DNA of 63,638 nt from Nanobdellota archaeon (GTDB lineage Archaea > Aenigmatarchaeota > Aenigmatarchaeia > Aenigmatarchaeales > Aenigmatarchaeaceae), in the NCBI GenBank assembly GCA_018901655.1, contig JAHIEG010000001.1, positions 1-63,638 of the forward strand, given 5' to 3'. Position numbers and translations under genes: made by a program. The notes under the pieces were generated by a model that was not told where the DNA came from, searched no databases, and worked only from the letters and a program-made list of their open reading frames with translations. Numbering within the stretch: the first letter of the stretch is position 1; each line of letters begins with the position of its first letter. Below, one piece after another: positions 22,318-33,610 of the stretch.

Positions 22318-23069
22318 TGTTACAGATAACCCGCAAAATTAATTCCGGTTGATCCCGCCGGAGATCACTGTTATCAGGTTTCGATTTAGCCATGCGAGGT
22401 GAGAGGGTTTAGACCCTCGCCGAACTGCTCAGTAACACGTAGTTAACTTACTCTTAGGTGGGGCATAAACTCGAGAAATTGAGGCTAATACCCCATAACT
22501 GTTTATAGCTGGAATGCTTTAACAGTAAAAGTTCCGACGCCTAAGAATAGGACTGCGGCGTATCAGGCTGTTGTGAGTGTAAAATACTCACAAACCTATA
22601 ACGCGTAGAGGCCATGAGAGTGGGAGCCTCGAGATGCCTTCTGAGACATGAAGGCAGGTCCTACGGGACGCAGCAGGCGCGAAAACTTTCCAATTCATTA
22701 ACGTGTGAGAAGGGAAGCCTGAGTGCTTATGCATTGCATAAGCTTTTCTTTAGCTTAAATCGCTAAAGGAATAAGTGGTGGGTAAGACAGGTGCCAGCCG
22801 CCGCGGTAATACCTGCGCCACGAATGGTGATCACGATTATTGGGTCTAGAGCGTCCGTAGCCGGTTTAGCAAGTTCCTGGTGAAATCTAACAGTAAACTG
22901 TTAGGCATGCTGGGAATACTATTAAACTTGAGATCGGGAGAGGTCGGAGGTAGTCCATGGGTAGGGGTTAAATCCTTTAATCCATGGAGGACCACCGGTG
23001 GCGAAGGCGTCCGACTGGAACGAGTCTGACGGTGAGGGACGAAAGCGTGGGGAGCAAAGCGGATTAGAT

Positions 23070-23815
23070 ATAAAAATGAGGAAACATTAAAAGCACAGAA
23101 ACCTTAATGTGACTATGTTAGAATTCCGGGTAAAACAGTTTTTGAAGAAAAATCAAGATATTAAAAAAATTGATAAACTGTTTACTTGTCGAGCATCACC
23201 ATATCAAATTAAGATTCCTATAAATATTTCAACAGATCTTTGTAGATTATTAGGAATAATACATGGTGATGGAAATCTTTCATCAAAGAGAATACATATT
23301 ACAGACAAATGTAAAGAATATCATACCAAGGAATTAAAACCTTTGTTTGAGAAATTATTTGGAATAAAGTTAAATCTCTATCATGATGTAAATAGGAATT
23401 CATACTATAGTCATATCAAAAGTAGTATCTTATATAGATATTTTATAGATGTTTTGGAATTACCAAAAGGTGCAGTTAGACAAAATTTGATTTTGCCAAG
23501 TTTTATGCAAAAATTAGAAAATAAATTTATTGCATCTTATATTGGAGGAGTATATGATGCTGAATCAAATATAAGCAAGAGGCAAGCTCAAATTAGTTTT
23601 TCAACAACTACAAAGCAAATATTTGATTTGGTTAAAAATTTTTTAATCATAAATAATATAAAATATAGTATCTATATAAGATCTCGAAGAATTAATAAAG
23701 AATATGAAATTTACATTTATGGAAAAGAAAATATTAGGAATTTTTTAAGATATATTAAAATATCACACCCAGAAAAAATTAAGCTTTTGAAAAGGTTTCT
23801 TCATTTTTACTAGAT
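23070..23815 (+). other. 16S intron 1 (746 nt, BHB), after about E. coli position 793
   Basis: Central helix ttag/ctag, bulges ata/ata, 15-bp terminal stem taaaaatgaggaaac/gtttcttcattttta; splicing restores GGATTAGATACCC. Confidence 0.92.
23109..23813 (+). CDS. Intron-encoded double-motif LAGLIDADG homing endonuclease
   Basis: RLLGIIHGDGNL and YIGGVYDAESNI motifs. Confidence 0.9.
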   Translation: MTMLEFRVKQFLKKNQDIKKIDKLFTCRASPYQIKIPINISTDLCRLLGIIHGDGNLSSKRIHITDKCKEYHTKELKPLFEKLFGIKLNLYHDVNRNSYYSHIKSSILYRYFIDVLELPKGAVRQNLILPSFMQKLENKFIASYIGGVYDAESNISKRQAQISFSTTTKQIFDLVKNFLIINNIKYSIYIRSRRINKEYEIYIYGKENIRNFLRYIKISHPEKIKLLKRFLHFY

Positions 23816-24004
23816 ACCCGTGTAGTCCACGCTGTAAACGATGTCCGCTTGATGTCACAAATCTTACGTGGATTTGTGGTGTCGGAGCGTAGGTGTTAAG
23901 CGGACCACCTGGGGACTACGACCGCAAGGTTGAAACTTAAGGGAATTGGCGGGGGAACACACAAGAGGTGGAGACTGCGGTTCAATTGGAGTCGACGCCG
24001 AGAA

Positions 24005-24605
24005 AAGAAAGCAACTATTATAAATATCAAACTTGGTAAATAATACCGGGATTGATATGGGTGTTTATCAAAAGTGTTTAAAAAACAAAGAACTTGCAGC
24101 AAATGTTCTTTTATCTTTGATTGAATTTGAATTTAGTTTGGTAAGTGACGATACGCCAACTTTGCTTCAATCACATGTCAATAAAGAACAATTAATTGCT
24201 GTATTCAGAATCTGTAAATCTCATAAATGGACAAAATTTAAGAAATTGAAACTTAAAGGCGAAAATTTTTATTTTCGTTTGACTATTGATGGATTAAAAG
24301 AAATATATGAGATAGCTGGTCCATTTGTTAGTAAAAAAAGAAATATGTGGACTAAATTAATTACAGAAAGGGCAGGAAAGAAAGGAGGATATATGAAAGA
24401 AATGCCTTCGACTGAAAAAAGAATCATCGATCTACTGCAAACGAATCATGACTGGTGGACAGTAGAAGGTGTATGTTTAAACTTAAGATTAACACCAAGT
24501 ACAATAAGAAAATCATTTAGAAAAATAGATAATAGTTTTATAGAAAGGAAAAAAATCGGAAGATCGGTTTTGTGGAAATTAAAATAATAGGTGTTTTCTC
24601 TCGAA
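24005..24605 (+). other. 16S intron 2 (601 nt, BHB), after about E. coli position 978
   Basis: Central helix cgag/ctcg, bulges aaa/aat, stem agaaagca/tgttttct; splicing restores GACGCCGAGAATCTCACC. Confidence 0.92.
24033..24587 (+). CDS. Intron-encoded protein: divergent LAGLIDADG-like domain plus C-terminal winged HTH
   Basis: LLSLIEFEFSL in the helix-1 position; C-terminal IIDLL...WTVEGVCLNLRLTPSTIRKSFRKI...IERKKIGRSVLWKL is wHTH-like. Confidence 0.6.
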   Translation: MVNNTGIDMGVYQKCLKNKELAANVLLSLIEFEFSLVSDDTPTLLQSHVNKEQLIAVFRICKSHKWTKFKKLKLKGENFYFRLTIDGLKEIYEIAGPFVSKKRNMWTKLITERAGKKGGYMKEMPSTEKRIIDLLQTNHDWWTVEGVCLNLRLTPSTIRKSFRKIDNSFIERKKIGRSVLWKLK

Positions 24606-25135
24606 TCTCACCAGGGTTGACAGTAGGATGAAGGTCAAGCTAATGGTCTTACCAGACAAGCTGAGAGGTGTTGCATGGCCATCGTCAGCTCGTACCTTGA
24701 GGCGTGCCGTTAAGTCGGTTAACGAGCGAGACCCACGCTATCATTTGCTACCATATTTTATCTTGGAGTAATCCAAAATGTAAATTATGAGCACTATGTT
24801 AGGACCGCCACTGATAAAGTGGAGGAAGGAGTGGGCAACGATAGGTCCGTATGGCCCGGATACCCTGGGCTACACGCGGTCTACAATGGTTAGGACAATG
24901 CGATGCAACTCCGAAAGGAGAAGCTAATCGCCTAAACCTAATCTTAGTCCGGATTGAGGATTGTAATTCATTCTCATGAAGCTGAAATCTCTAGTAAGCG
25001 AAAGTTAATATCTTTCGCTGAATATGTCCCTGTTCTTTGCACACACTGCCTGTCAAACCATGCGAATGGATTTTTGGTGAGGCTTTGCTTTAACAAAGTC
25101 GAGCCAGAGGTCTGTGAGTGGGGTTAAGTCATAAC

Positions 25136-25253
25136 AAAATACTCAGTAGAATTTTTCGATTATTCCTTAGTGAATGAAGAAAAGGCAGCAAGCTTAATGC
25201 TTGTACGAGGTGAAATGAAAGGAAGTAATTTTTCTTTGCTGGTATTTTATGAA
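25136..25253 (+). other. 16S intron 3 (118 nt, ORF-less, BHB), after about E. coli position 1501
   Basis: Central helix cata/tatg, bulges aca/aaa, stem aaatac/gtattt; splicing restores AAGTCATAACAAGGTAGCC. Confidence 0.9.
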
Positions 25254-25329
25254 AAGGTAGCCGTACTGGAAGGTGCGGCTGGATCACCTCCTATATTTTA
25301 TAATATAGATTATCCGGTGCTAGTTAATT

Positions 25330-25361
25330 ACACAGAAGTTGCATAACATCCTTACTTACAT
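25330..25361 (+). other. 3' arm of the 16S pre-rRNA processing stem (BHB)
   Basis: acacagaag-ttgc-ata-acatccttacttacat, complementary to 22286-22317. Confidence 0.9.
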
Positions 25362-25379
25362 TTGATAATTTTAAAAAAA

Positions 25380-26582
25380 TTATTTTGCAGATGAAACTAT
25401 TTCTATTACGTCTCTATTTTTTAAACGATATTCTCCTTTAATTTTCATTTTAGTTCTAACATCATATGCATATAATAGTCCTTTTGCAAGATCAGTATGT
25501 ATTTTATTTGCAAAATCCATTACAGTTGAACCTGGTTTCATTAGGAAAACATCTGGTAATATGTTTCCATTTTTATCGCCTAATCCTTTTATTCCTCCTG
25601 GAAATATTGCTATGTATTTTAAGAAATCAAATACAGAATCATCTAAAGTTGTTTGTACTCCTGTTGTTTTGTATTTTTCTAAAACATTTTTCTTAATAAA
25701 TTCTAAACCTTTTATTTGTTTTTCATTCATATCTTTATTTATTATTTCAAAAACTGCATCTCCTGGGTTATATTTAATCCATGTTTTTTTAGCTGCTTCT
25801 CTTAATGCTAGTTCTGATTCTGCTGAACATGGTTTGAAATAATAGTTTGGAAATTCTTTTTTTAATCTTTCATAATTTTCATGAGCTCCTGGGATATCAA
25901 TTTTATTACAAGCAATTAAGATTGGTTTTGTTCTTTTTCTTAACTCGGTTGCAATTTGTTTTAATTGTTCTTCTGTCCATTTAGTTGGATCGAGCTTTGG
26001 TATTTTTAGTTCTTCTAATACATCATCTATTAGTTCTGGTTTAACTCCAAATACATCTAATTGAATTGCTAATTGTTCTGAAATTTGAACTTCTTTGTCC
26101 TGATTCATTTTTCTTGATAATTTGTTCCATCCTTTTTTTAATACTCCTAGATACCACATATCTAATTCTATTTCTAAAAATCTTACATCATTGGCTGGAT
26201 CGTAAGAACCTGGCTTATCTAGTTCTCCTTTTTCATTAGCTGAACCAGAAATATCTATTACATGAATTAAAACATCTGCTCTATTAAGATCATTAAGAAA
26301 CTGATTACCAAGTCCTTTTCCTTCATATGCGCCTGGTACGAGTCCAGCTACATCTATTATTTCTACTGGTACATATCTTATTCCTTTTTCACAATATCCA
26401 GTTCTTGGATTACACTGTTTATTAAATTCTTTATCTACGCATTCAACTCTTACAAAACCTGTTCCGTGATTTGGTTTAATTGTTGTAAATGGATATGATG
26501 CTATTTCTACATTTATTAAAGTTGCTGCTTTAAAAAACGTTGATTTACCAGTTGATGGTTTACCAACTATACCTATTAACAT
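25380..26582 (-). CDS. ychF: Obg-family ATPase YchF (archaeal), with TGS domain
   Basis: GIVGKPSTGKSTFF, YPFTTI, DVAGLV.GA..G.GLGNQFL, NKID, C-terminal TGS. Confidence 0.95.
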   Translation of the reverse strand: MLIGIVGKPSTGKSTFFKAATLINVEIASYPFTTIKPNHGTGFVRVECVDKEFNKQCNPRTGYCEKGIRYVPVEIIDVAGLVPGAYEGKGLGNQFLNDLNRADVLIHVIDISGSANEKGELDKPGSYDPANDVRFLEIELDMWYLGVLKKGWNKLSRKMNQDKEVQISEQLAIQLDVFGVKPELIDDVLEELKIPKLDPTKWTEEQLKQIATELRKRTKPILIACNKIDIPGAHENYERLKKEFPNYYFKPCSAESELALREAAKKTWIKYNPGDAVFEIINKDMNEKQIKGLEFIKKNVLEKYKTTGVQTTLDDSVFDFLKYIAIFPGGIKGLGDKNGNILPDVFLMKPGSTVMDFANKIHTDLAKGLLYAYDVRTKMKIKGEYRLKNRDVIEIVSSAK

Positions 26583-26611
26583 ATTAGAAGTATTGAACTT
26601 AGATTATTAAA

Positions 26612-26905
26612 TCAATATGTTGGTTCTGAATTTACTTTTTTCATTAGTCGATCTATTTTTGAATCAATCCATTCTATTGTCTCATCTGTTGGTTCTGGAC
26701 CTGAAAATTTTACTGTTAGAATATTATTTTGATATGTGATACTTTGTAGAATATTTTCATTATGTTTTATTTCATCTGCTTTAAGATACCATATATATTC
26801 ATCTTCAATTAGATTGCTAATATCATAATTTTTAAGTATTATATGATATTCATGAAAACCCGGGTTTTCTATTACTTCTGCTTGTTCTAATGGATTATAT
26901 AACAT
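26612..26905 (-). CDS. Hypothetical protein
   Basis: 97-aa acidic ORF. Confidence 0.55.
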   Translation of the reverse strand: MLYNPLEQAEVIENPGFHEYHIILKNYDISNLIEDEYIWYLKADEIKHNENILQSITYQNNILTVKFSGPEPTDETIEWIDSKIDRLMKKVNSEPTY

Positions 26906-27011
26906 AATTATAATTAAAAATTAAAAGAATTTAAATGGTTAAAAATAATAGAACCCCCAAAGTCACACCAACTTGATGTATAAAATAACCTTAAGAATTA
27001 CAAAATTTTAT

Positions 27012-27290
27012 TTACTCATCTTCAGGTTTTTCTTCATCTTCAGATTCTTCGTTTGATTCTTCAACTTCTTCCTTTACTTCTTTTGTTTCTGTTGATTCAT
27101 CAGCTTTTTTGACTTTTGTTGCCATTGGACCTTTTTCACTTTGTGATTTTTCGAATTCTACTAGATCTCCTTCTTGTGGTGAATAATCTCCAATAACTTC
27201 ATTTTTGTGGAAAAACAAACCTCTTTTTTCACCAATATCGATGAAACCAAAGTTTTTGTCATCTAACCACTTTTCTATTTTTCCTTTCAT
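27012..27290 (-). CDS. Cold-shock domain protein with an acidic tail
   Basis: KGKIEKW...KNFGFI (RNP1), LFFH (RNP2), GPMATKV; strong SD aaggaggt. Confidence 0.93.
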   Translation of the reverse strand: MKGKIEKWLDDKNFGFIDIGEKRGLFFHKNEVIGDYSPQEGDLVEFEKSQSEKGPMATKVKKADESTETKEVKEEVEESNEESEDEEKPEDE

Positions 27291-27377
27291 AAATTAACCT
27301 CCTTAACATTGCGAACTTTAATTTTTAAGTTCACTGTGTGTTAATTGGTTATACACACTTTAAATAAGAAAGATTTA

Positions 27378-27420
27378 TGGTGGACTCAGGGGAATGTGAC
27401 TAAAAGGTACAAACCCCCTT
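27378..27420 (-). repeat. tRNA-Ala 3'-end-derived repeat R1 (att-like)
   Basis: Minus strand GGGGGTTTGTACCTTTTAGTCACATTCCCCTGAGTCCACCA; 25/28 identical to R2 over the core. Confidence 0.8.
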
Positions 27421-27421
27421 T

Positions 27422-28504
27422 TTAGATAATATCAATATGATGTTTAAGCTTTCTATGTTCTGGAACAATATGTAAATTATTAAGTTCATCTGTAAATTGT
27501 ATTTCTCCCCAAAGAATAAATTGATTCGGAGTTGTTATTGTTTGACAATTGTCTCCATTAATATCACAAGATTCTCGTGTACTCTCTTTTTCAACCGTAT
27601 TATCACATAAAACATTAAATGTTAATATTTCCGTTGTATATGGAATTAAACTACTTTCTCTTCCTATTATCGTATTTTCAGTAGAATCAAAAGTTACTTG
27701 ACATACTTCTTCAACATCATTAGCAAACGCGGTTCTTATATCAGCATTTAATATTTTGTAAGTAATATCATTGAATTGATAATTTTCAAGTTGAATTCCT
27801 ATTTCTGTTGTTTCTCCTATGTTGATAATTGTTGATATTATTCTTTGAGCTGGTGCAGTAGCAGGGTCATCATCTGTATCCTCACTACCTTCTACATTTG
27901 TTAATTCGTTTATTTTCAAGTCGTCTTTATGAACTGGTTTACAAACTTCTTCTTTGTAACTTATTATATCAGAATATCCATTCTCTCCGTTAAGTCGTGC
28001 GTTGGACCATAACTCTATATCTTCGCTAGTTTTTAAAAAACTAAACACATAATCTTTTCCAATAATTGAATCAAGATCAATAGTGCATTTTACCATGTAA
28101 AGAAAACTATCACCAAACTTTTCTGTTTCAAGACATAATTCAGAGAAACTAAACATATTGTAAACCTGTTCTTCACATTCTACAGTAGTCATTCCGCTTT
28201 CAAGACATGACATATACTCTTCACGTACAATAAAATCTTGTTCAAGCGGCTCATTTACATCTAATCTAACTGAAACTCTTTCAGTATTTTTTTCACAGTT
28301 CAGGATTGTAGTATCTACCTCTAAAATTATCTCATCTGTTAAGTAAGTATAATCGATAAGTTTTCCATAAAAATTATATTCTATCGCATTCATAGTCATT
28401 TCTGTTCCTGTATTTCCACCTCTTCCTGTGCTTTGTTCTTCAACACAACCACTGATTAACACTATAGAAATTAGAACAAGTGTTAATAAAATTTGTTTTT
28501 TCAT
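27422..28504 (-). CDS. Putative lipoprotein / secreted surface protein
   Basis: MKKQILLTLVLISIVLISGCVEE, an archaeal lipobox-like signal; acidic and Cys-containing. Confidence 0.75.
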   Translation of the reverse strand: MKKQILLTLVLISIVLISGCVEEQSTGRGGNTGTEMTMNAIEYNFYGKLIDYTYLTDEIILEVDTTILNCEKNTERVSVRLDVNEPLEQDFIVREEYMSCLESGMTTVECEEQVYNMFSFSELCLETEKFGDSFLYMVKCTIDLDSIIGKDYVFSFLKTSEDIELWSNARLNGENGYSDIISYKEEVCKPVHKDDLKINELTNVEGSEDTDDDPATAPAQRIISTIINIGETTEIGIQLENYQFNDITYKILNADIRTAFANDVEEVCQVTFDSTENTIIGRESSLIPYTTEILTFNVLCDNTVEKESTRESCDINGDNCQTITTPNQFILWGEIQFTDELNNLHIVPEHRKLKHHIDII

Positions 28505-30360
28505 CCAAACCAACTGAACATGCCCTTAGCACTATTTTCTTTTTTTTCAGCTTTCTTAAGTATCTCTCCTGCCTGCTCTTGCAATGATTCGGCTTGTTCT
28601 ACTAAAATAGATTTAGCTGGTTCATCAACTTGTTTAGAAATCTCTAATAATAAATCTGCAGTTTTTATTAATCTTTGTCCCTGACTTTTTAAAAATTCAG
28701 CATCTTCTTTTTCTTGTTCTACAACCATTCCGAAGAACCATTTAAACCTATAGCCAAATCCTCTTTCATCGATTTCTTTTTCAAAAGTATCTGTATCTGT
28801 ACTAACCTTTAATATTTCTTCCTGAACTGTTTCAATTTCTACGGCTTTTTCCCCAACTACTTTTGATTTAATTGTTTCTAACTGTTTAACTCTTGCAACA
28901 GCAACTTCATCTACTTGTAGAGTCTGTCCAGTATAACTAACTCGTAATGTCGCATATTTCCAGCTATCATCTATTGATATAAAATTTATTACAGCACCAA
29001 ATACGGGTTTTGCTTCTGTAAGAGGTAATGTTATTGTTTCTGATTTATCTTCAAACAATACTTCAAGTTTGATTGTTTGTTCGTATTTACTTATTCCCCA
29101 AAGATAAATTTTCAATGGATTATTATTCTTATCTAAATAATCTACTATTTTAACTGGCTGTCTTTCCTGCAATTTGAACATTTCTCCCAATTCTGCATAT
29201 GTCCCATAAATAGTTTCTTCCGAACCGATTGGTTCTATTATAACGCCTTCACTTTCTTCTTCTACAGGTGTTATTTCACTTTCTTCTTCAATTAATGAAT
29301 TACTTGGAGTTTGTACTCTCAAACTCACACGATCTTTACTTCCAAAAGGAGGATTTAAATCATAGAAAATAGAATCTATAGTAATAAACATTGTATTTTT
29401 GCCAGAAAGAACACTCTTTGGTTCTGTTGTGCTAACCCAATATTCTAATACAACATTTGTATCGGGATCAATTGCCTTTATCTTTGCTGTTTCTCCACTA
29501 ACTTCAGAAATCATAAAACGATTGCCACTATAATCATACAAATATTCCATCATTGGTGCCTGATAATAATTATAAACATAACAATTTTCATATACTGGAC
29601 CGTCTTCTGCTGAGCACTGATCAACTTTACTTTTAAGAAGACAAACTTGATAAGCACTTTTTATACAAGTATATTCATTTTGACAAATTACCCCATCACA
29701 AACTTCATTAGGGATCATTGTTATAGATGTAGAAAGCATGTTATTAGCTTCATTTGTTTCAATTACTTGATTTTGTGGATCAACAGTTGCAATAATATCT
29801 ATTGTTCTTACTGTTTTCAATGAGCTACCGTCAGACAAATATCCATAACCTGTTTCTGTACATGTTTCTCCTGGTAAAAGTTCTGTACTACCACATACAT
29901 TATCAACATAAACGCTCAATTGTGGTATCTGTGGATTTATTCCAAATGTTTGTGTTGCCGCGCTTCCAACATTACTAACTTTTATATAATAATATATTTT
30001 TTTAGGATTATCGTTGTTATCAAATGTATATGTTATTTTTTCAACCTTCAAATCAGCTGCTGTAGTATTTTCAACACATACTGCATCTTGACAATTACAC
30101 TGAGTAAATTCAATCCAATAATATGGGTCTCCTCCTGCAACAGTTCCACAAAAATAATGCAAAAATCCATATTCTCCAGAACCACTACTATATCCACACT
30201 TATCAGTCAGTGTTTTTACATAACCATCATCATAAGAAACCGTTATTGATTTTTCTGACTCTACACAGCTGGTTATTTCTTGAGCAAATACAGAAACGGA
30301 ACTTAACGATATCAAAATCGTTACTATTATAAAACAAATCATTAAATTATTTATTCTCAT
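28501..30360 (-). CDS. Secreted surface protein with a CARDB (Ig-like) domain and C-terminal coiled coil
   Basis: Signal peptide ending VFAQ; ADLKVEKI...VSNVG...TVDPQNQVIETNEANN. Confidence 0.8.
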   Translation of the reverse strand: MRINNLMICFIIVTILISLSSVSVFAQEITSCVESEKSITVSYDDGYVKTLTDKCGYSSGSGEYGFLHYFCGTVAGGDPYYWIEFTQCNCQDAVCVENTTAADLKVEKITYTFDNNDNPKKIYYYIKVSNVGSAATQTFGINPQIPQLSVYVDNVCGSTELLPGETCTETGYGYLSDGSSLKTVRTIDIIATVDPQNQVIETNEANNMLSTSITMIPNEVCDGVICQNEYTCIKSAYQVCLLKSKVDQCSAEDGPVYENCYVYNYYQAPMMEYLYDYSGNRFMISEVSGETAKIKAIDPDTNVVLEYWVSTTEPKSVLSGKNTMFITIDSIFYDLNPPFGSKDRVSLRVQTPSNSLIEEESEITPVEEESEGVIIEPIGSEETIYGTYAELGEMFKLQERQPVKIVDYLDKNNNPLKIYLWGISKYEQTIKLEVLFEDKSETITLPLTEAKPVFGAVINFISIDDSWKYATLRVSYTGQTLQVDEVAVARVKQLETIKSKVVGEKAVEIETVQEEILKVSTDTDTFEKEIDERGFGYRFKWFFGMVVEQEKEDAEFLKSQGQRLIKTADLLLEISKQVDEPAKSILVEQAESLQEQAGEILKKAEKKENSAKGMFSWFG

Positions 30361-30458
30361 AATTAAAATGCTATTTCTATGCTTATATAAACTTCTATTT
30401 AGTTCGGTCAAAACCTAACCAATCTTAATTTTATAAACATTACTCTATAATTCTATTC

Positions 30459-30953
30459 ATGGAAATAGATAAGAAAACAATTAAGCTATTATCATCAGAT
30501 ACCAGAGTAAATATTTTAAAAAGTCTATCAAGAAGAAGAAAAACATTAACTGAGTTAGCTTCTGAGTTTGATTTAGCTAAATCTACTATTACTGAACATC
30601 TAAGTAAATTAGAAGAATCAAATCTAATCATAAAACAAGAAACTGGAAGAAAATGGATTTATTATGAACTATCTTCAAAGGGTGAAAAATTAATAAAACC
30701 TAAAACTCCAACACCGTTCGTAATTTTACTAACATTAGGAATCATAATCATAATATTTGGATCAATGAGTTTAGGAATAATGGACTCAGGTTCTTCTCAA
30801 TTTCAATCAGCTGAAACAACAGCAAAACCATCTATAGACGGAATAGTACACGAAGAAGTTAATCAATTTAATCCTTTACCTATTAGTTTGGTTGTATTAG
30901 GTTTAATTGTTGTAGTATTTAGTGTGTATAAAATTAAAAAATTAAAATCTTAA
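30459..30953 (+). CDS. ArsR-type wHTH regulator with two C-terminal TM helices
   Basis: LSSDTRVNILKSL...TLTELASEFDLAKSTITEHLSKLEE..GRKWIYYEL, then two hydrophobic segments. Confidence 0.88.
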   Translation: MEIDKKTIKLLSSDTRVNILKSLSRRRKTLTELASEFDLAKSTITEHLSKLEESNLIIKQETGRKWIYYELSSKGEKLIKPKTPTPFVILLTLGIIIIIFGSMSLGIMDSGSSQFQSAETTAKPSIDGIVHEEVNQFNPLPISLVVLGLIVVVFSVYKIKKLKS

Positions 30954-30959
30954 TTTTGA

Positions 30960-30997
30960 TGAACTCAGGGTAATGTTACTAAAAGGTGTGGTGGACT
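30960..30997 (-). repeat. tRNA-Ala 3'-end-derived repeat R2
   Basis: tgaactcagggtaatgttactaaaaggtgtggtggact; 34/38 identical to 32633-32670. Confidence 0.85.
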
Positions 30998-31112
30998 TAA
31001 TTAACAGCCACATAATCTTTTACAACATTGTTCTATTTCTGCGTCTGCTCTAACCATTTCTTCTTTTAATCACATTATATCTAATTCTTAATTGTTCTTA
31101 AATAACCCGTAT

Positions 31113-31200
31113 ACTCACAGTTTACTATATATGATAAATGTTATACTATAAGTTCATTATATATAGTAAATGTTTATCTATTTTGTTATAAACTGTGAGT
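31113..31200. promoter_or_regulatory. Nested inverted repeats upstream of the toxin-antitoxin-like pair
   Basis: actcacagttta (31113-31124)/taaactgtgagt (31189-31200), 12 bp perfect; tttactatata (31121-31131)/tatatagtaaa (31160-31170), 11 bp perfect. Confidence 0.6.
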
Positions 31201-31281
31201 TTACATGTATAAATTCGTAGTTTATTACTACTGCAGTAATAAAAGCATAACTTTATATATTATTACCGCTATAGTAATATT

Positions 31282-31896
31282 ATGAAGTACTATGAATTAT
31301 GGATCATTATGTGGAGATGGAAAAAAGAGTTTTCTGTAAAGGAATTTATATCAACTTTTCAGACACCTAGTCCAAATAAGACATTATTTGATATGACTAA
31401 GAAAGGATTTATAGAAAAAACAGAGAGAGGAAACTATAAGGTGGTTTCTCCTGAACAATTATTTAAAAACAGGGTAAATATATCAAAATTTTATGATTTT
31501 TTAAAACAGATTAAGTTAAAATATAGCTTAACAGGCCAGGATGCAGTGTTCTTATGGACTAAAGGCGGATATCAGGTAGGCAGATTCTTTGGCTTTTATC
31601 CTGTTTACGTAAAAGTTTTACAATCAGATTTGAACAAATGGAAAGAATTATTAAAAACTAATAATATGAGTTATCATGTACAGGGAAACGAATTAAAAGA
31701 AACATATTTTGGAGCGTTTTATATGTTAATTCCTGAAGAAGATTTCAAAACAGAAATAGCAGATAATTTCTCAGTCGATCCGTTGAAAGAAACTATAAAA
31801 TTCTGCAAAGATAACATATATCAATACGAACCTGCGTTGGAAATGTTAAACGAGATGTATAACTTAGGTATGGAAGTGAGGTACAGAGAAGTATGA
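31282..31896 (+). CDS. Putative AbiEi-like antitoxin / wHTH transcriptional regulator
   Basis: N-terminal wHTH (LFDMTKKGFIEKTERGNY); ATGA overlap with the nucleotidyltransferase gene. Confidence 0.6.
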   Translation: MKYYELWIIMWRWKKEFSVKEFISTFQTPSPNKTLFDMTKKGFIEKTERGNYKVVSPEQLFKNRVNISKFYDFLKQIKLKYSLTGQDAVFLWTKGGYQVGRFFGFYPVYVKVLQSDLNKWKELLKTNNMSYHVQGNELKETYFGAFYMLIPEEDFKTEIADNFSVDPLKETIKFCKDNIYQYEPALEMLNEMYNLGMEVRYREV

Positions 31897-32600
31897 AATT
31901 TGTTGAAAGAGAAAATGAGATTATAGAAATAATAAGAAAATTATCAGATTTTAAAATGGTAGTAGTTGGTGGTTATGCTGTTTCAGCTAGAGCTAAGCAT
32001 AGATTTTCTGTTGATTGCGATATTGTTATTCCTAAAGATGAATTGGAGAAAATAGTTGAACTAGTGAAAAAAGAAGAATTTGAAAAAACAATAATTAAAG
32101 ATAATCTTGATAATGAATATGGTGGAGAATTTATCAGATATGTAAAGAAAATAGAAGACCTTCCTGTTAGTGTTGATATATTAGTTAGTTCTTTGGTTTG
32201 TAGAACAACAAGTGCTTCCTGGAGTTTTGATTATATTCTTAAAAATTCAGATAAAATAATTATAGCTGGAATAGAGAGTTCTGTTGAATGTATGGTTCCA
32301 AATAAAGAATTATTATTGGCCTTTAAGATCCACTCTGCTAGAAAAACTGATCTAAGAGATATTATTATGTTAAAAGACGCTAATTGGAATGCTGTTAAAG
32401 ATCATCTAAACAGAGGGGATTCAGATGTTTTGAAAAAACAAATTGGATCCATGATCAAGGAATTGGACAGCGAATATCTGGCTGATTCATTAAAAGGAGT
32501 ATTTCAGTTAAAAGAAGATGTTGAGAAAATAATAAAGGATACCAAAAAGAAATTAACTGGTTTATTAAATAAAATAGGTGTTAATGATGAGCGAAACTAA
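31893..32600 (+). CDS. Nucleotidyltransferase, AbiEii/type IV TA toxin-like
   Basis: VVVGGYAV...RFSVDCDIVI; FKIHSAR.TD.RDI. Confidence 0.75.
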   Translation: MKFVERENEIIEIIRKLSDFKMVVVGGYAVSARAKHRFSVDCDIVIPKDELEKIVELVKKEEFEKTIIKDNLDNEYGGEFIRYVKKIEDLPVSVDILVSSLVCRTTSASWSFDYILKNSDKIIIAGIESSVECMVPNKELLLAFKIHSARKTDLRDIIMLKDANWNAVKDHLNRGDSDVLKKQIGSMIKELDSEYLADSLKGVFQLKEDVEKIIKDTKKKLTGLLNKIGVNDERN

Positions 32601-32670
32601 ATGGTGTGGGTGAACTGAGTAAATATACTAAGTGGACTCAGGGTAATGTTACTAAATGGTGAGGAGGACT
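32596..32670 (-). repeat. tRNA-Ala 3'-end-derived repeat R3 (tandem degenerate units)
   Basis: taagtggactcaggg (32629-32643) is 15/15 identical to 33480-33494; actaaatggtg occurs twice. Confidence 0.85.
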
Positions 32671-32681
32671 AAACGCGATAT

Positions 32682-33428
32682 TCAGCAAGGATATTCGTTA
32701 CAATAATTTTCTATCATTTCTCTACAAGGTGGTGTAGAAGTGTCTTCGGTTATCATATCACAAATTTCTAAAGCTCTTGCTTCATCTGACCTCCTTGCTA
32801 TTACAGCGATATTGTGAAAACACATATCTTTTGCTTTTGTAATTAATTCATTACAAAAATTTACACCTGCTTCTACATCAGTTTCAGCCATTTTTGTACC
32901 TATTTCCTGTAAACAATTCTCTTTTGGATATCCTTCAAAATAATTATTGCAGACATTCTCTGCTTCATCGAAATTATTATTAGTTATCGCTGTTTGTGCT
33001 TTTTGTTTAATACACGAATTTGCTAGACTTTCATCAGATATCATATTACAAATTTCAATAGCTTTATCTAAACCATCATTAATATATGCTACACCTGAAG
33101 CTTGCATATAACAATCTGGGCATATGTCTAAAATTTCTCCCCAGGTTTCAGGATTTTTACAATCAGGAACTTCTACTTGTTCTCCTTGTATTGAAGTATA
33201 GCATTTTTTCTCAGATGTTACTATACCAGAGCAATATATATGTGTACCACAATCCAAGCAACCAACTGGATAATAATCAAATTTGAAACCTATGCAGCCA
33301 TATTCTGTTCGTTGAATATGCGGTGGACCAGGACAGAAACCGCAGGTACCACCAGCATCTTTAGGATAGAAAAATGCTATTAGAGGTATAAGAATTATTA
33401 TTATTAAAATTAAAATCAGTTTATTCAT
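32682..33428 (-). CDS. N-terminally anchored Cys-rich surface protein with helical repeats
   Basis: Hydrophobic N-terminus, CGFCP and CLDC motifs, repeating A..ICN.I......C units. Confidence 0.75.
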   Translation of the reverse strand: MNKLILILIIIILIPLIAFFYPKDAGGTCGFCPGPPHIQRTEYGCIGFKFDYYPVGCLDCGTHIYCSGIVTSEKKCYTSIQGEQVEVPDCKNPETWGEILDICPDCYMQASGVAYINDGLDKAIEICNMISDESLANSCIKQKAQTAITNNNFDEAENVCNNYFEGYPKENCLQEIGTKMAETDVEAGVNFCNELITKAKDMCFHNIAVIARRSDEARALEICDMITEDTSTPPCREMIENYCNEYPC

Positions 33429-33458
33429 AACAATAATTAGTAGAACTGTCTTATAAAA
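33424..33458 (-). promoter_or_regulatory. Leaderless promoter element C3, shared with two pilin-like genes
   Basis: ttcataacaataattagtagaactgtcttataaaa resembles 34823-34861 and 43024-43062. Confidence 0.55.
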
Positions 33459-33483
33459 TTAGGGGATTTGTACAAAAAGTAAG

Positions 33484-33610
33484 TGGACTCAGGGGGATTT
33501 TCACTCAATGTAAATTATACTATCAAGATTTGAACCCCCAACCCCTCGCTGTTCTGAAAACAAATTGTTTCTTGCAAAGCGAGTGCTCTACCAGGTTGAG
33601 CCATGAGCCC
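33484..33610 (-). tRNA. tRNA-Ala(UGC) with introns at 37/38 (33551-33572, 22 nt) and 59/60 (33498-33528, 31 nt)
   Basis: Spliced GGGCTCATGGCTCAACCTGGTAGAGCACTCGCTTTGCAAGCGAGGGGTTGGGGGTTCAAATCCCCCTGAGTCCA; G3:U70; both introns form BHBs (TTTG/CAGA and TTCA/TGAA). Confidence 0.93.

Follow-up and report, generated by a model that had tools for sequence, protein, structure and literature searches.

Direct repeats of a tRNA-Ala 3′ end between small gene modules in a DPANN archaeon

We analyzed a stretch of 63,638 nt (hereafter, the window), which is contig C14 of a metagenome-assembled genome (MAG; G000) of a DPANN archaeon. The MAG comprises 665 kb in 23 contigs with 30% G+C and has a completeness of 84%. 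In the window, the 3′ end of a tRNA-Ala(UGC) gene is followed by three small gene modules (A, B, and C), each bounded on its distal side by a repeat (R3, R2, and R1, respectively) that ends in a copy of the tRNA-Ala 3′ end. An original prediction had attributed this array to successive integration events or to integron-like cassettes served by a recombinase in trans. As described below, R1, R2, and R3 are probably attR-type attachment (att) sites, produced by repeated site-specific integration at the tRNA-Ala 3′ end.

The tRNA-Ala gene and the repeat-bounded modules of the window

The features of the array and of the tRNA-Ala gene are as follows.

27377-27424, minus strand: R1, distal attR-type site (nhmmer E = 1e-9)
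27422-30953, mixed strands: Module C, three open reading frames (ORFs)
27422-28513, minus strand: Cys-rich lipoprotein of 363 aa, read as an ORF (Module C)
28501-30411, minus strand: CARDB secreted protein of 636 aa (Pfam CARDB, 2.9e-8; Module C)
30459-30953, plus strand: membrane-anchored ArsR-type helix-turn-helix (HTH) protein (Pfam HTH_5, 9.5e-13; Module C)
30956-31003, minus strand: R2, full att-type repeat (nhmmer E = 2e-12; 54 bits with model R1)
31222-32600, plus strand: Module B, AbiE-like pair with its own promoter, antisense to the array
32596-32621, minus strand: partial arm copy ACTCAGTTCACCCACACCATTTAGTT, overlapping the toxin gene, whose last codons it replaces
32629-32673, minus strand: R3, full att-type repeat (nhmmer E = 4e-12; 51.8 bits with model R1)
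32682-33428, minus strand: Module A, ORF for a Cys-rich secreted or anchored protein of 248 aa, whose stop codon lies 8 nt before R3
33436-33460, minus strand: P′, promoter-like left-end arm of 25 nt, AATTTTATAAGACAGTTCTACTAAT, located after the tRNA 3′ end and before the first cassette gene
33461-33473, plus strand: inverted partial copy AGGGGATTTGTAC of the T-arm-like arm of R1-type sites, read from the sequence (11/13 positions match the R1 arm)
33484-33610, minus strand: tRNA-Ala(UGC) gene, proposed attB
33573-33610, 33528-33550, and 33484-33496, minus strand: exons of the tRNA-Ala gene
33551-33572 and 33497-33527, minus strand: introns of the tRNA-Ala gene, in the anticodon loop (22 nt) and in the T-loop (31 nt), respectively

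The tRNA-Ala gene, as originally predicted, is real. In-silico splicing of its two introns gave a perfect 74-nt cloverleaf of tRNA-Ala(TGC), with the G3:U70 identity pair present and with CCA not encoded, despite the gene having been missed by ARAGORN and by Rfam at the gathering threshold. The Rfam tRNA model gave a weak match at 33518-33608, covering the 5′ two-thirds of the tRNA. The 5′ exon differs by one base from that of a sister-genus genome, G001 (JAHIDZ01, labelled 'Nanoarchaeota archaeon'), and the tRNA-Ala genes of other genera of the family were not located, their 5′ exons differing by more than three mismatches. Among the 26 tRNA genes of G000, only tRNA-Ala has extra non-tRNA copies of its 3′ 16-mer.

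The repeats lie where they had been predicted. A search for their 25-nt core that tolerated up to three mismatches gave matches at 27380, 30959, and 32632, which had at most two mismatches, and the number expected from 100 shuffles was 0.00. In the sense of the tRNA, the consensus of the ~45-nt unit is AAGTCCACCACACC-wTTTAGTmACATT-mCCCwGAGTCCAC(CA). The earlier reading of the whole repeat as a copy of the tRNA 3′ end holds for its last 13-16 nt only, which correspond to the 3′ exon and the discriminator (core GAGTCCACC); the rest of the unit is not from the tRNA. R1 and R3 contain the core CCCCTGAGTCCAC, which R2 has with two changes. R2 and R3 are 88% identical over 41 nt, and the predicted 15/15 agreement of R3 with the tRNA end was reproduced, both having TAAGTGGACTCAGGG in common. 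R1 is a variant, which reads GGGGGTTTGTACC-TTTTAGTCACATT-CCCCTGAGTCCA-CCA; its sequence and the stop codon of the 363-aa gene overlap. The arm of R1 starts with GGGGGTTTGTACC, and both the CCA and the T-stem-like remnant (GGGGG) previously noted in it were seen. The possibility that the repeat arm was copied from the T-loop intron was rejected, since local alignments between the two were no better than those of shuffles (p = 0.15-0.95).

The segment between the tRNA 3′ end and Module A contains two elements. P′ recurs identically after a tRNA-Ala 3′ fragment on contig C2 (15951-15975), where the homology extends over 76 nt at 80% identity. Next to it, 33461-33473 had been taken for a tandem degenerate unit of the repeat; this reading was abandoned, and the segment is an inverted partial copy of an R1-type arm. 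The 13-nt T-arm-like sequence (GGGGGTTTGTACC / GGGGATTTGTAC) stands at 27405-27417 and 33461-33473 in opposite orientation at the two ends of the array, which may be the trace of an inversion between att sites.

The modules carry different cargo. The Module A protein had no Pfam or NCBIfam family match. Module B encodes a 204-aa HTH protein (31282-31896) and a 235-aa nucleotidyltransferase (31893-32600) with weak family matches to AbiEi, AbiEii, and NTP_transf_5, and is an AbiE-like toxin-antitoxin (TA) module. Its segment 31222-32575 is 80-82% identical in nucleotide sequence to the TA modules of G001 and of an Aenigmarchaeota MAG (JAGGXH01). The homology ends at ~32575, and the toxin gene here has the partial repeat in place of its last 7-8 codons. 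The identity of 80-82% equals that of EF-1a and exceeds that of most core genes, which suggests that the TA module spread by recent horizontal transfer. The sequence at 31110-31173, upstream of the region with the TA promoter, consists of a tandem pair of AT-rich 32-nt units, which may be an operator. Lipoprotein-gene matches on contigs C21 and C5 were considered as further cassettes and rejected; the similarity is that of a shared signal-peptide sequence.

The window also has an isolated archaeal 16S rRNA gene at 22342-25159, in convergent orientation to the cassette array. It spans 2.8 kb against the 1478-nt model, which indicates large insertions or introns. In five of the ten relatives examined at the Alba locus (L039, L040, and L042-L044), a contig ends 0.2-4 kb downstream of Alba, which fits a family-wide repeat-rich or variable region beside Alba and the 16S gene.

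Copies of the repeat elsewhere in the genome and in the sister genus

Searches of G000 with nhmmer and a sequence-only covariance model gave 9-10 copies, of which eight are full, one is partial, and one is degenerate. As the original prediction had suggested looking for, further copies were present outside the window, on contigs C7, C2, and C5.

C14: three full copies, downstream of tRNA-Ala
C7, 10309-13371: five copies bounding four mini-cassettes, no tRNA present; the cassettes hold a JAB-like gene, a Lit-like HExxH protease gene, a nucleotidyltransferase gene with an M23 peptidase gene, and ~300 bp without an ORF
C2, 15866-17644: a 20-nt tRNA-Ala 3′ fragment, the 25 nt identical to P′, one lipoprotein gene, a full repeat, and an EamA transporter gene
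C5: tRNA-Arg(TCT), a 65-aa membrane ORF, and one copy

Inside every array, the copies are co-oriented (4/4, 5/5, and 2/2), and seven of the ten begin within 10 nt of a stop codon on the same strand. An alignment of eight copies had a mean column identity of 79%. All full copies have the same central box TTTAGTnACATT, while the tRNA-derived core varies. Arms and cores are combined as in a mosaic: R1 and the C2 copy are identical over 29 nt on the core side and differ in their arms, and R2 and the C5 copy are identical over 29 nt of the arm and differ in their cores. RNAalifold gave no conserved pairs in the eight-copy alignment, and hence no attC-like fold, and no terminator-like site was found at any copy. 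The repeats are thus not generic genome-wide terminators: the copies outside the window border lineage-specific accessory insertions and lack terminator or hairpin features.

The insertions on C7 and C2 were compared with the adjacency of the flanking core genes in eight relatives of the same family. All eight have the genes for the M50 protease and NusA-KH immediately next to each other in convergent orientation, whereas 3.1 kb of cassettes lies between them in G000. EF-1a and S10 are adjacent in 3/8 relatives with both genes seen; four have different inserts and one has a rearranged order, and in G000 the spacer holds the C2 cassette and the EamA transporter gene. The different inserts in several relatives indicate that this spacer is a variable spot family-wide. 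As observed, the C2 cassette is a minimal unit, consisting of a core, the 25-nt P′ promoter, one ORF, an arm, and a core. The 20-nt tRNA-Ala 3′ fragment on C2 is of the intron-less type.

Pattern and model searches for the repeat covered 60 relatives, 42 genomes of the same order, GTDB species representatives, JGI metagenomes, and IMG/VR. The repeat was found in two genomes only, G000 and G001, and in metagenome contigs of the MAG itself. Pattern scans of metagenomes, GTDB genomes, and viral sequences for other strains or samples likewise gave only the MAG's own metagenome and G001, and exact-protein look-ups matched run SRR6976411 only. This run (metagenome Ga0180732) contains the G000 contigs together with contigs identical to G001 (the TA locus and a Fic cassette). 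The two genera with the repeat are thus found together in a single sample and would be able to exchange elements.

The last genes on contig C2 of G001 are Alba and then tRNA-Ala, which has the same two introns and an encoded CCA. The G001 contigs C1 and C4 open with the same 141 nt of that tRNA and then diverge, and the end of C1 reads GTGGGGGATTTAAGC-16 nt-CCCTGAGTCCACCATA, after which 114 nt match C4 exactly. From the shared starts and the joining of the C1 end to the C4 flank, it follows that C1 is an island of 25.6 kb, at whose two ends 16 nt of the tRNA end are directly repeated. The ORF that comes first after tRNA-Ala encodes a 417-aa tyrosine integrase (PF00589, 4e-20), and the island also carries genes for an SNF2 helicase, a 1184-aa methyltransferase, Cys-rich lipoproteins, and a second recombinase. 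The integrase lies at the tRNA-proximal end, whereas the retained cargo abuts the distal attR; the attR of the island has the same architecture as R1. In an independent ENA contig of 158 kb, the island continues across the R1-type attR into C4. As both the tRNA-Ala|C4 and the attR|C4 junctions are present as 141-mers in the G001 MAG assembly, the data are suggestive, although not proof, of a population that holds occupied and empty sites.

Contig C4 of G001 continues with an integrase-less 4.8-kb module (AAA_14 ATPase, S51 peptidase, and HhH-GPD protein), a second R1-type site, the Fic cassette, a variant repeat, a small ORF, a full repeat that is 87% identical to the C2 copy of G000, one ORF, and a convergent 16S 3′ end. 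This layout is the same as that of the window at 25159-33610. The repeat is conserved in both genera, while the cargo is entirely different.

Integrases in the genome and in the arrays

The absence of an integrase from the array, which had been noted originally, was borne out. PF00589 had no match in any array of G000, and tblastn with the three integrases of G000 and two recombinases of G001 found no fragment in any array, the best E value being 0.09. Elements of the Sulfolobus spindle-shaped virus (SSV) type have int(N) and int(C) gene halves on either side of the insert, with att inside the ORF; with the G000 and G001 integrases as queries, no integrase-like fragments were found.

Elsewhere in G000, the PF00589 search gave three Xer-like integrases (C22, 8080-9282; C23, 2878-4317; C10, 19330-20613). 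These are 400-480 aa long, have a Zn ribbon at the C-terminus, and are all encoded on other contigs; they are the nearest recombinases to the array. One neighbors tRNA-Arg(TCG), one the RNase P RNA gene, and the third no recognized RNA gene. Two integrases of this family adjoin the 3′ end of a stable-RNA gene (tRNA-Arg and RNase P RNA), which agrees with the integration at the tRNA-Ala 3′ end proposed below. The integrase of the G001 island is 27-29% identical to each of the three.

Two loci on other contigs were also observed. On C22 (8080-9618), the 400-aa member of the three directly follows the 3′ end of RNase P RNA (RF00373, 103.8 bits), a gene that is in turn located after the 3′ end of the 23S rRNA; a further element has probably integrated here, with a stable-RNA gene as attB. 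On C9 (14535-14645), just after tRNA-Ser(TGA), 37 aa are similar to the N-terminal end of the C10 integrase (E = 4e-4, 46% identity) and may be an integrase remnant.

Origin of the array and its relation to known systems

We propose that the 3′ end of tRNA-Ala(UGC) would serve as attB for elements of the genomic-island type that use a Xer-like tyrosine recombinase. Every integration would restore the 3′ exon of the tRNA, and the far end of the insert would keep an attR composed of the element's own arm of ~30 nt and the 13-16-nt tRNA core. The restored attB could be used again, so that inserts would become stacked in tandem. The three modules would be either trimmed island remnants or small cassettes brought by a recombinase encoded elsewhere, which had lost their integrases or never had any. 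Because the same site family borders small insertions at three loci other than tRNA-Ala, att-bearing pieces may also have been re-inserted at secondary sites. The repeat family and its co-orientation, the insertions relative to other genomes of the family, the lack of an integrase in the arrays, and the integrase-bearing island at the same site in G001 are direct observations, whereas the acting recombinase, the place of crossover, the manner of integrase loss, and any current movement of the cassettes are what we infer here.

The successive integration named in the original prediction is well supported by the co-oriented direct repeats with a tRNA core, by the uniqueness of tRNA-Ala among the 26 tRNA genes, and by the G001 island, which lies at the same site and has the same 16-nt core. 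The insertions between core genes on C7 and C2 and the mosaic arms and cores are further evidence for the proposal. Several observations weigh against it. No recombinase is assignable to the repeats, the G001 integrase being only 27-29% identical to those of a MAG that is 84% complete. The invariant box is more conserved than the tRNA core, which is not expected of neutral relics. The repeat is carried by two genomes only, the secondary loci have no tRNA-Ala, and in the leftmost C7 copy an element-type arm abuts the M50 stop codon exactly, which is not predicted by a simple attP x attB event. The invariant box, the mosaic arms and cores, the non-tRNA arrays, and the leftmost C7 copy exceed simple decay and keep cassettes served in trans in play. 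On the other hand, the TA-module homologues in G001 and JAGGXH01 lie in unrelated contexts without the repeat, indicating that at least the TA cargo also travels by other routes.

In a rival explanation, the ~45-nt repeat is the recombination site of small promoter-bearing cassettes in an active system that resembles integrons or cis-mobilizable elements (CIMEs). The cassettes, themselves lacking an integrase, would be excised, reshuffled, and inserted again at tRNA-Ala and at secondary sites by a recombinase acting in trans, which could be any of the three Xer-like integrases or be encoded on a co-resident island. Cassette sizes of 0.3-3.5 kb at four loci, a repeat kept across two genera with wholly different cargo, and the mosaic combinations of arms and cores agree with this, as do the invariant central box, which suggests a putative binding site, and the C2 cassette as a minimal unit. 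The insertions between tightly adjacent core genes without a tRNA and the defense- or TA-like cargo, as in chromosomal integrons, point in the same direction. Against these stand the lack of a dedicated integrase beside any array, a site without an attC-like fold, a TA module that occurs elsewhere without the repeat and so moves independently, and the restriction of the repeat to two genomes. An integron-like array moved in trans is thus compatible with the data, but we regard it as rather unlikely to be the explanation. The broader proposal of a DPANN lineage with integron-like cassettes and no dedicated integrase, in which a 45-nt site originally copied from the tRNA-Ala 3′ end would be served by Xer-like integrases in trans, is likewise tentative, and we consider it unlikely.

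The short, intergenic, multi-copy nature of the repeat and its confinement to one lineage would also be those of a non-autonomous element, like a miniature inverted-repeat transposable element (MITE) or a repetitive extragenic palindromic (REP) element, that spread behind genes, the intervening genes being ordinary residents. However, those genes are absent from relatives, in which the flanking core genes are directly adjacent; the copies form co-oriented clusters rather than scattered ones and have neither terminal inverted repeats nor target duplications, and integrase-driven insertion took place at the same core in G001. This explanation is therefore very improbable. Even less credence is given to a role at the RNA level, whether as a terminator or processing signal, as a tRNA-like 3′ tag of mRNA, or as split tRNA-Ala 3′ halves joined in trans. 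Most copies do lie on the sense strand just past stop codons, several carry ...GAGTCCA-CCA, and the genome is rich in bulge-helix-bulge introns; nevertheless, the copies have no RNAalifold pairs and no terminator-like site, R2 and the partial copy near R3 are antisense to the genes they follow, and acceptor changes in several copies would not pair with GGGCUCA. The sole tRNA-Ala 5′ part already has a 3′ exon in cis. Split 3′ halves in particular were rejected, as this single 5′ part leaves no partner 5′ half, and no inverted copy of the repeat arm lies beside any tRNA 5′ part in G000.

Repeated integration at tRNA-Ala, the reading that we favor, has precedents. Tandem re-use of a tRNA or tmRNA attB, and the loss of integrases after integration, have been documented for archaeal elements (PMC8371274, PMC6563490) and for the ssrA islands of Dehalococcoides (PMC3146451). 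As in these, direct repeats of the 3′ end part stacked inserts and the RNA gene is regenerated; the integrase adjoins the RNA gene in such elements, as it does in G001. In contrast, the modules here measure 0.8-3.5 kb and keep no integrase or fragment of one, and the conserved site is ~45 nt long with 13-16 nt derived from the tRNA and is also found at loci other than tRNA-Ala. Among the features of tRNA-borne islands, G000 thus has the direct tRNA 3′-end repeats and the intact tRNA, and the internal integrase is found in G001 but not in G000; that inserts are absent from relatives or polymorphic was seen in the C7 and C2 comparisons and at the G001 junctions. Fragments of tRNA 3′ ends are known to remain as integration scars, which can be mistaken for tRNA genes (PMC9897764). 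Unlike such plain fragments, those described here are set within a longer, conserved, multi-copy site.

CIMEs and site-specific accretion in streptococci provide a second comparison, in which att-flanked modules are without recombination genes (PMC5704250). The modules here are similarly flanked by att sites of an integrase-bearing family and lack recombination and transfer genes; they stand in tandem with an integrase-bearing element that uses the same site, and could be mobilized by it. However, CIMEs are bacterial and tied to conjugative elements, whereas the present cassettes are much smaller and also occupy secondary sites. Integrons are resembled in that short cassettes end in a co-oriented repeat right after the ORF, that the cargo is TA- or defense-like, and that a reversed TA cassette has its own promoter. 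Unlike in integrons, with their IntI, attI, and attC, no IntI-type integrase adjoins the array, which starts from a tRNA gene and is anchored on its 3′ end, the sequence of the site is conserved rather than a fold, no folded attC is present, and the cassettes bear promoters. Without an IntI at its head and a folded attC, the locus lacks what defines an integron. Taken together, the locus is a familiar tRNA integration hotspot in an unusually miniature form, from which its own integrase is absent. What is unusual is the tiny size of the modules, a 45-nt site that is shared by two genera with different cargo, the arrays at non-tRNA sites, and an attB that is restricted to the 13 nt of a 3′ exon immediately after a T-loop intron.

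The genomes of DPANN archaea are tiny, the organisms are host-dependent, and little is known of the ways in which they acquire and exchange accessory genes. The array indicates that a tRNA 3′ end behind a T-loop intron is still usable as an integration site, that very small modules of defense, TA, and surface-protein genes accumulate there, and that the same site marks insertions among tightly packed core genes. If the cassettes move via a recombinase encoded elsewhere, they would be an archaeal counterpart of gene capture of the integron or CIME type, and tRNA-Ala attB and the 45-nt site would be a defined substrate pair on which to test archaeal Xer-like integrases. Genomes of ~0.7 Mb would, if the integron-like explanation is true, gain a compact exchangeable pool of defense and surface genes.

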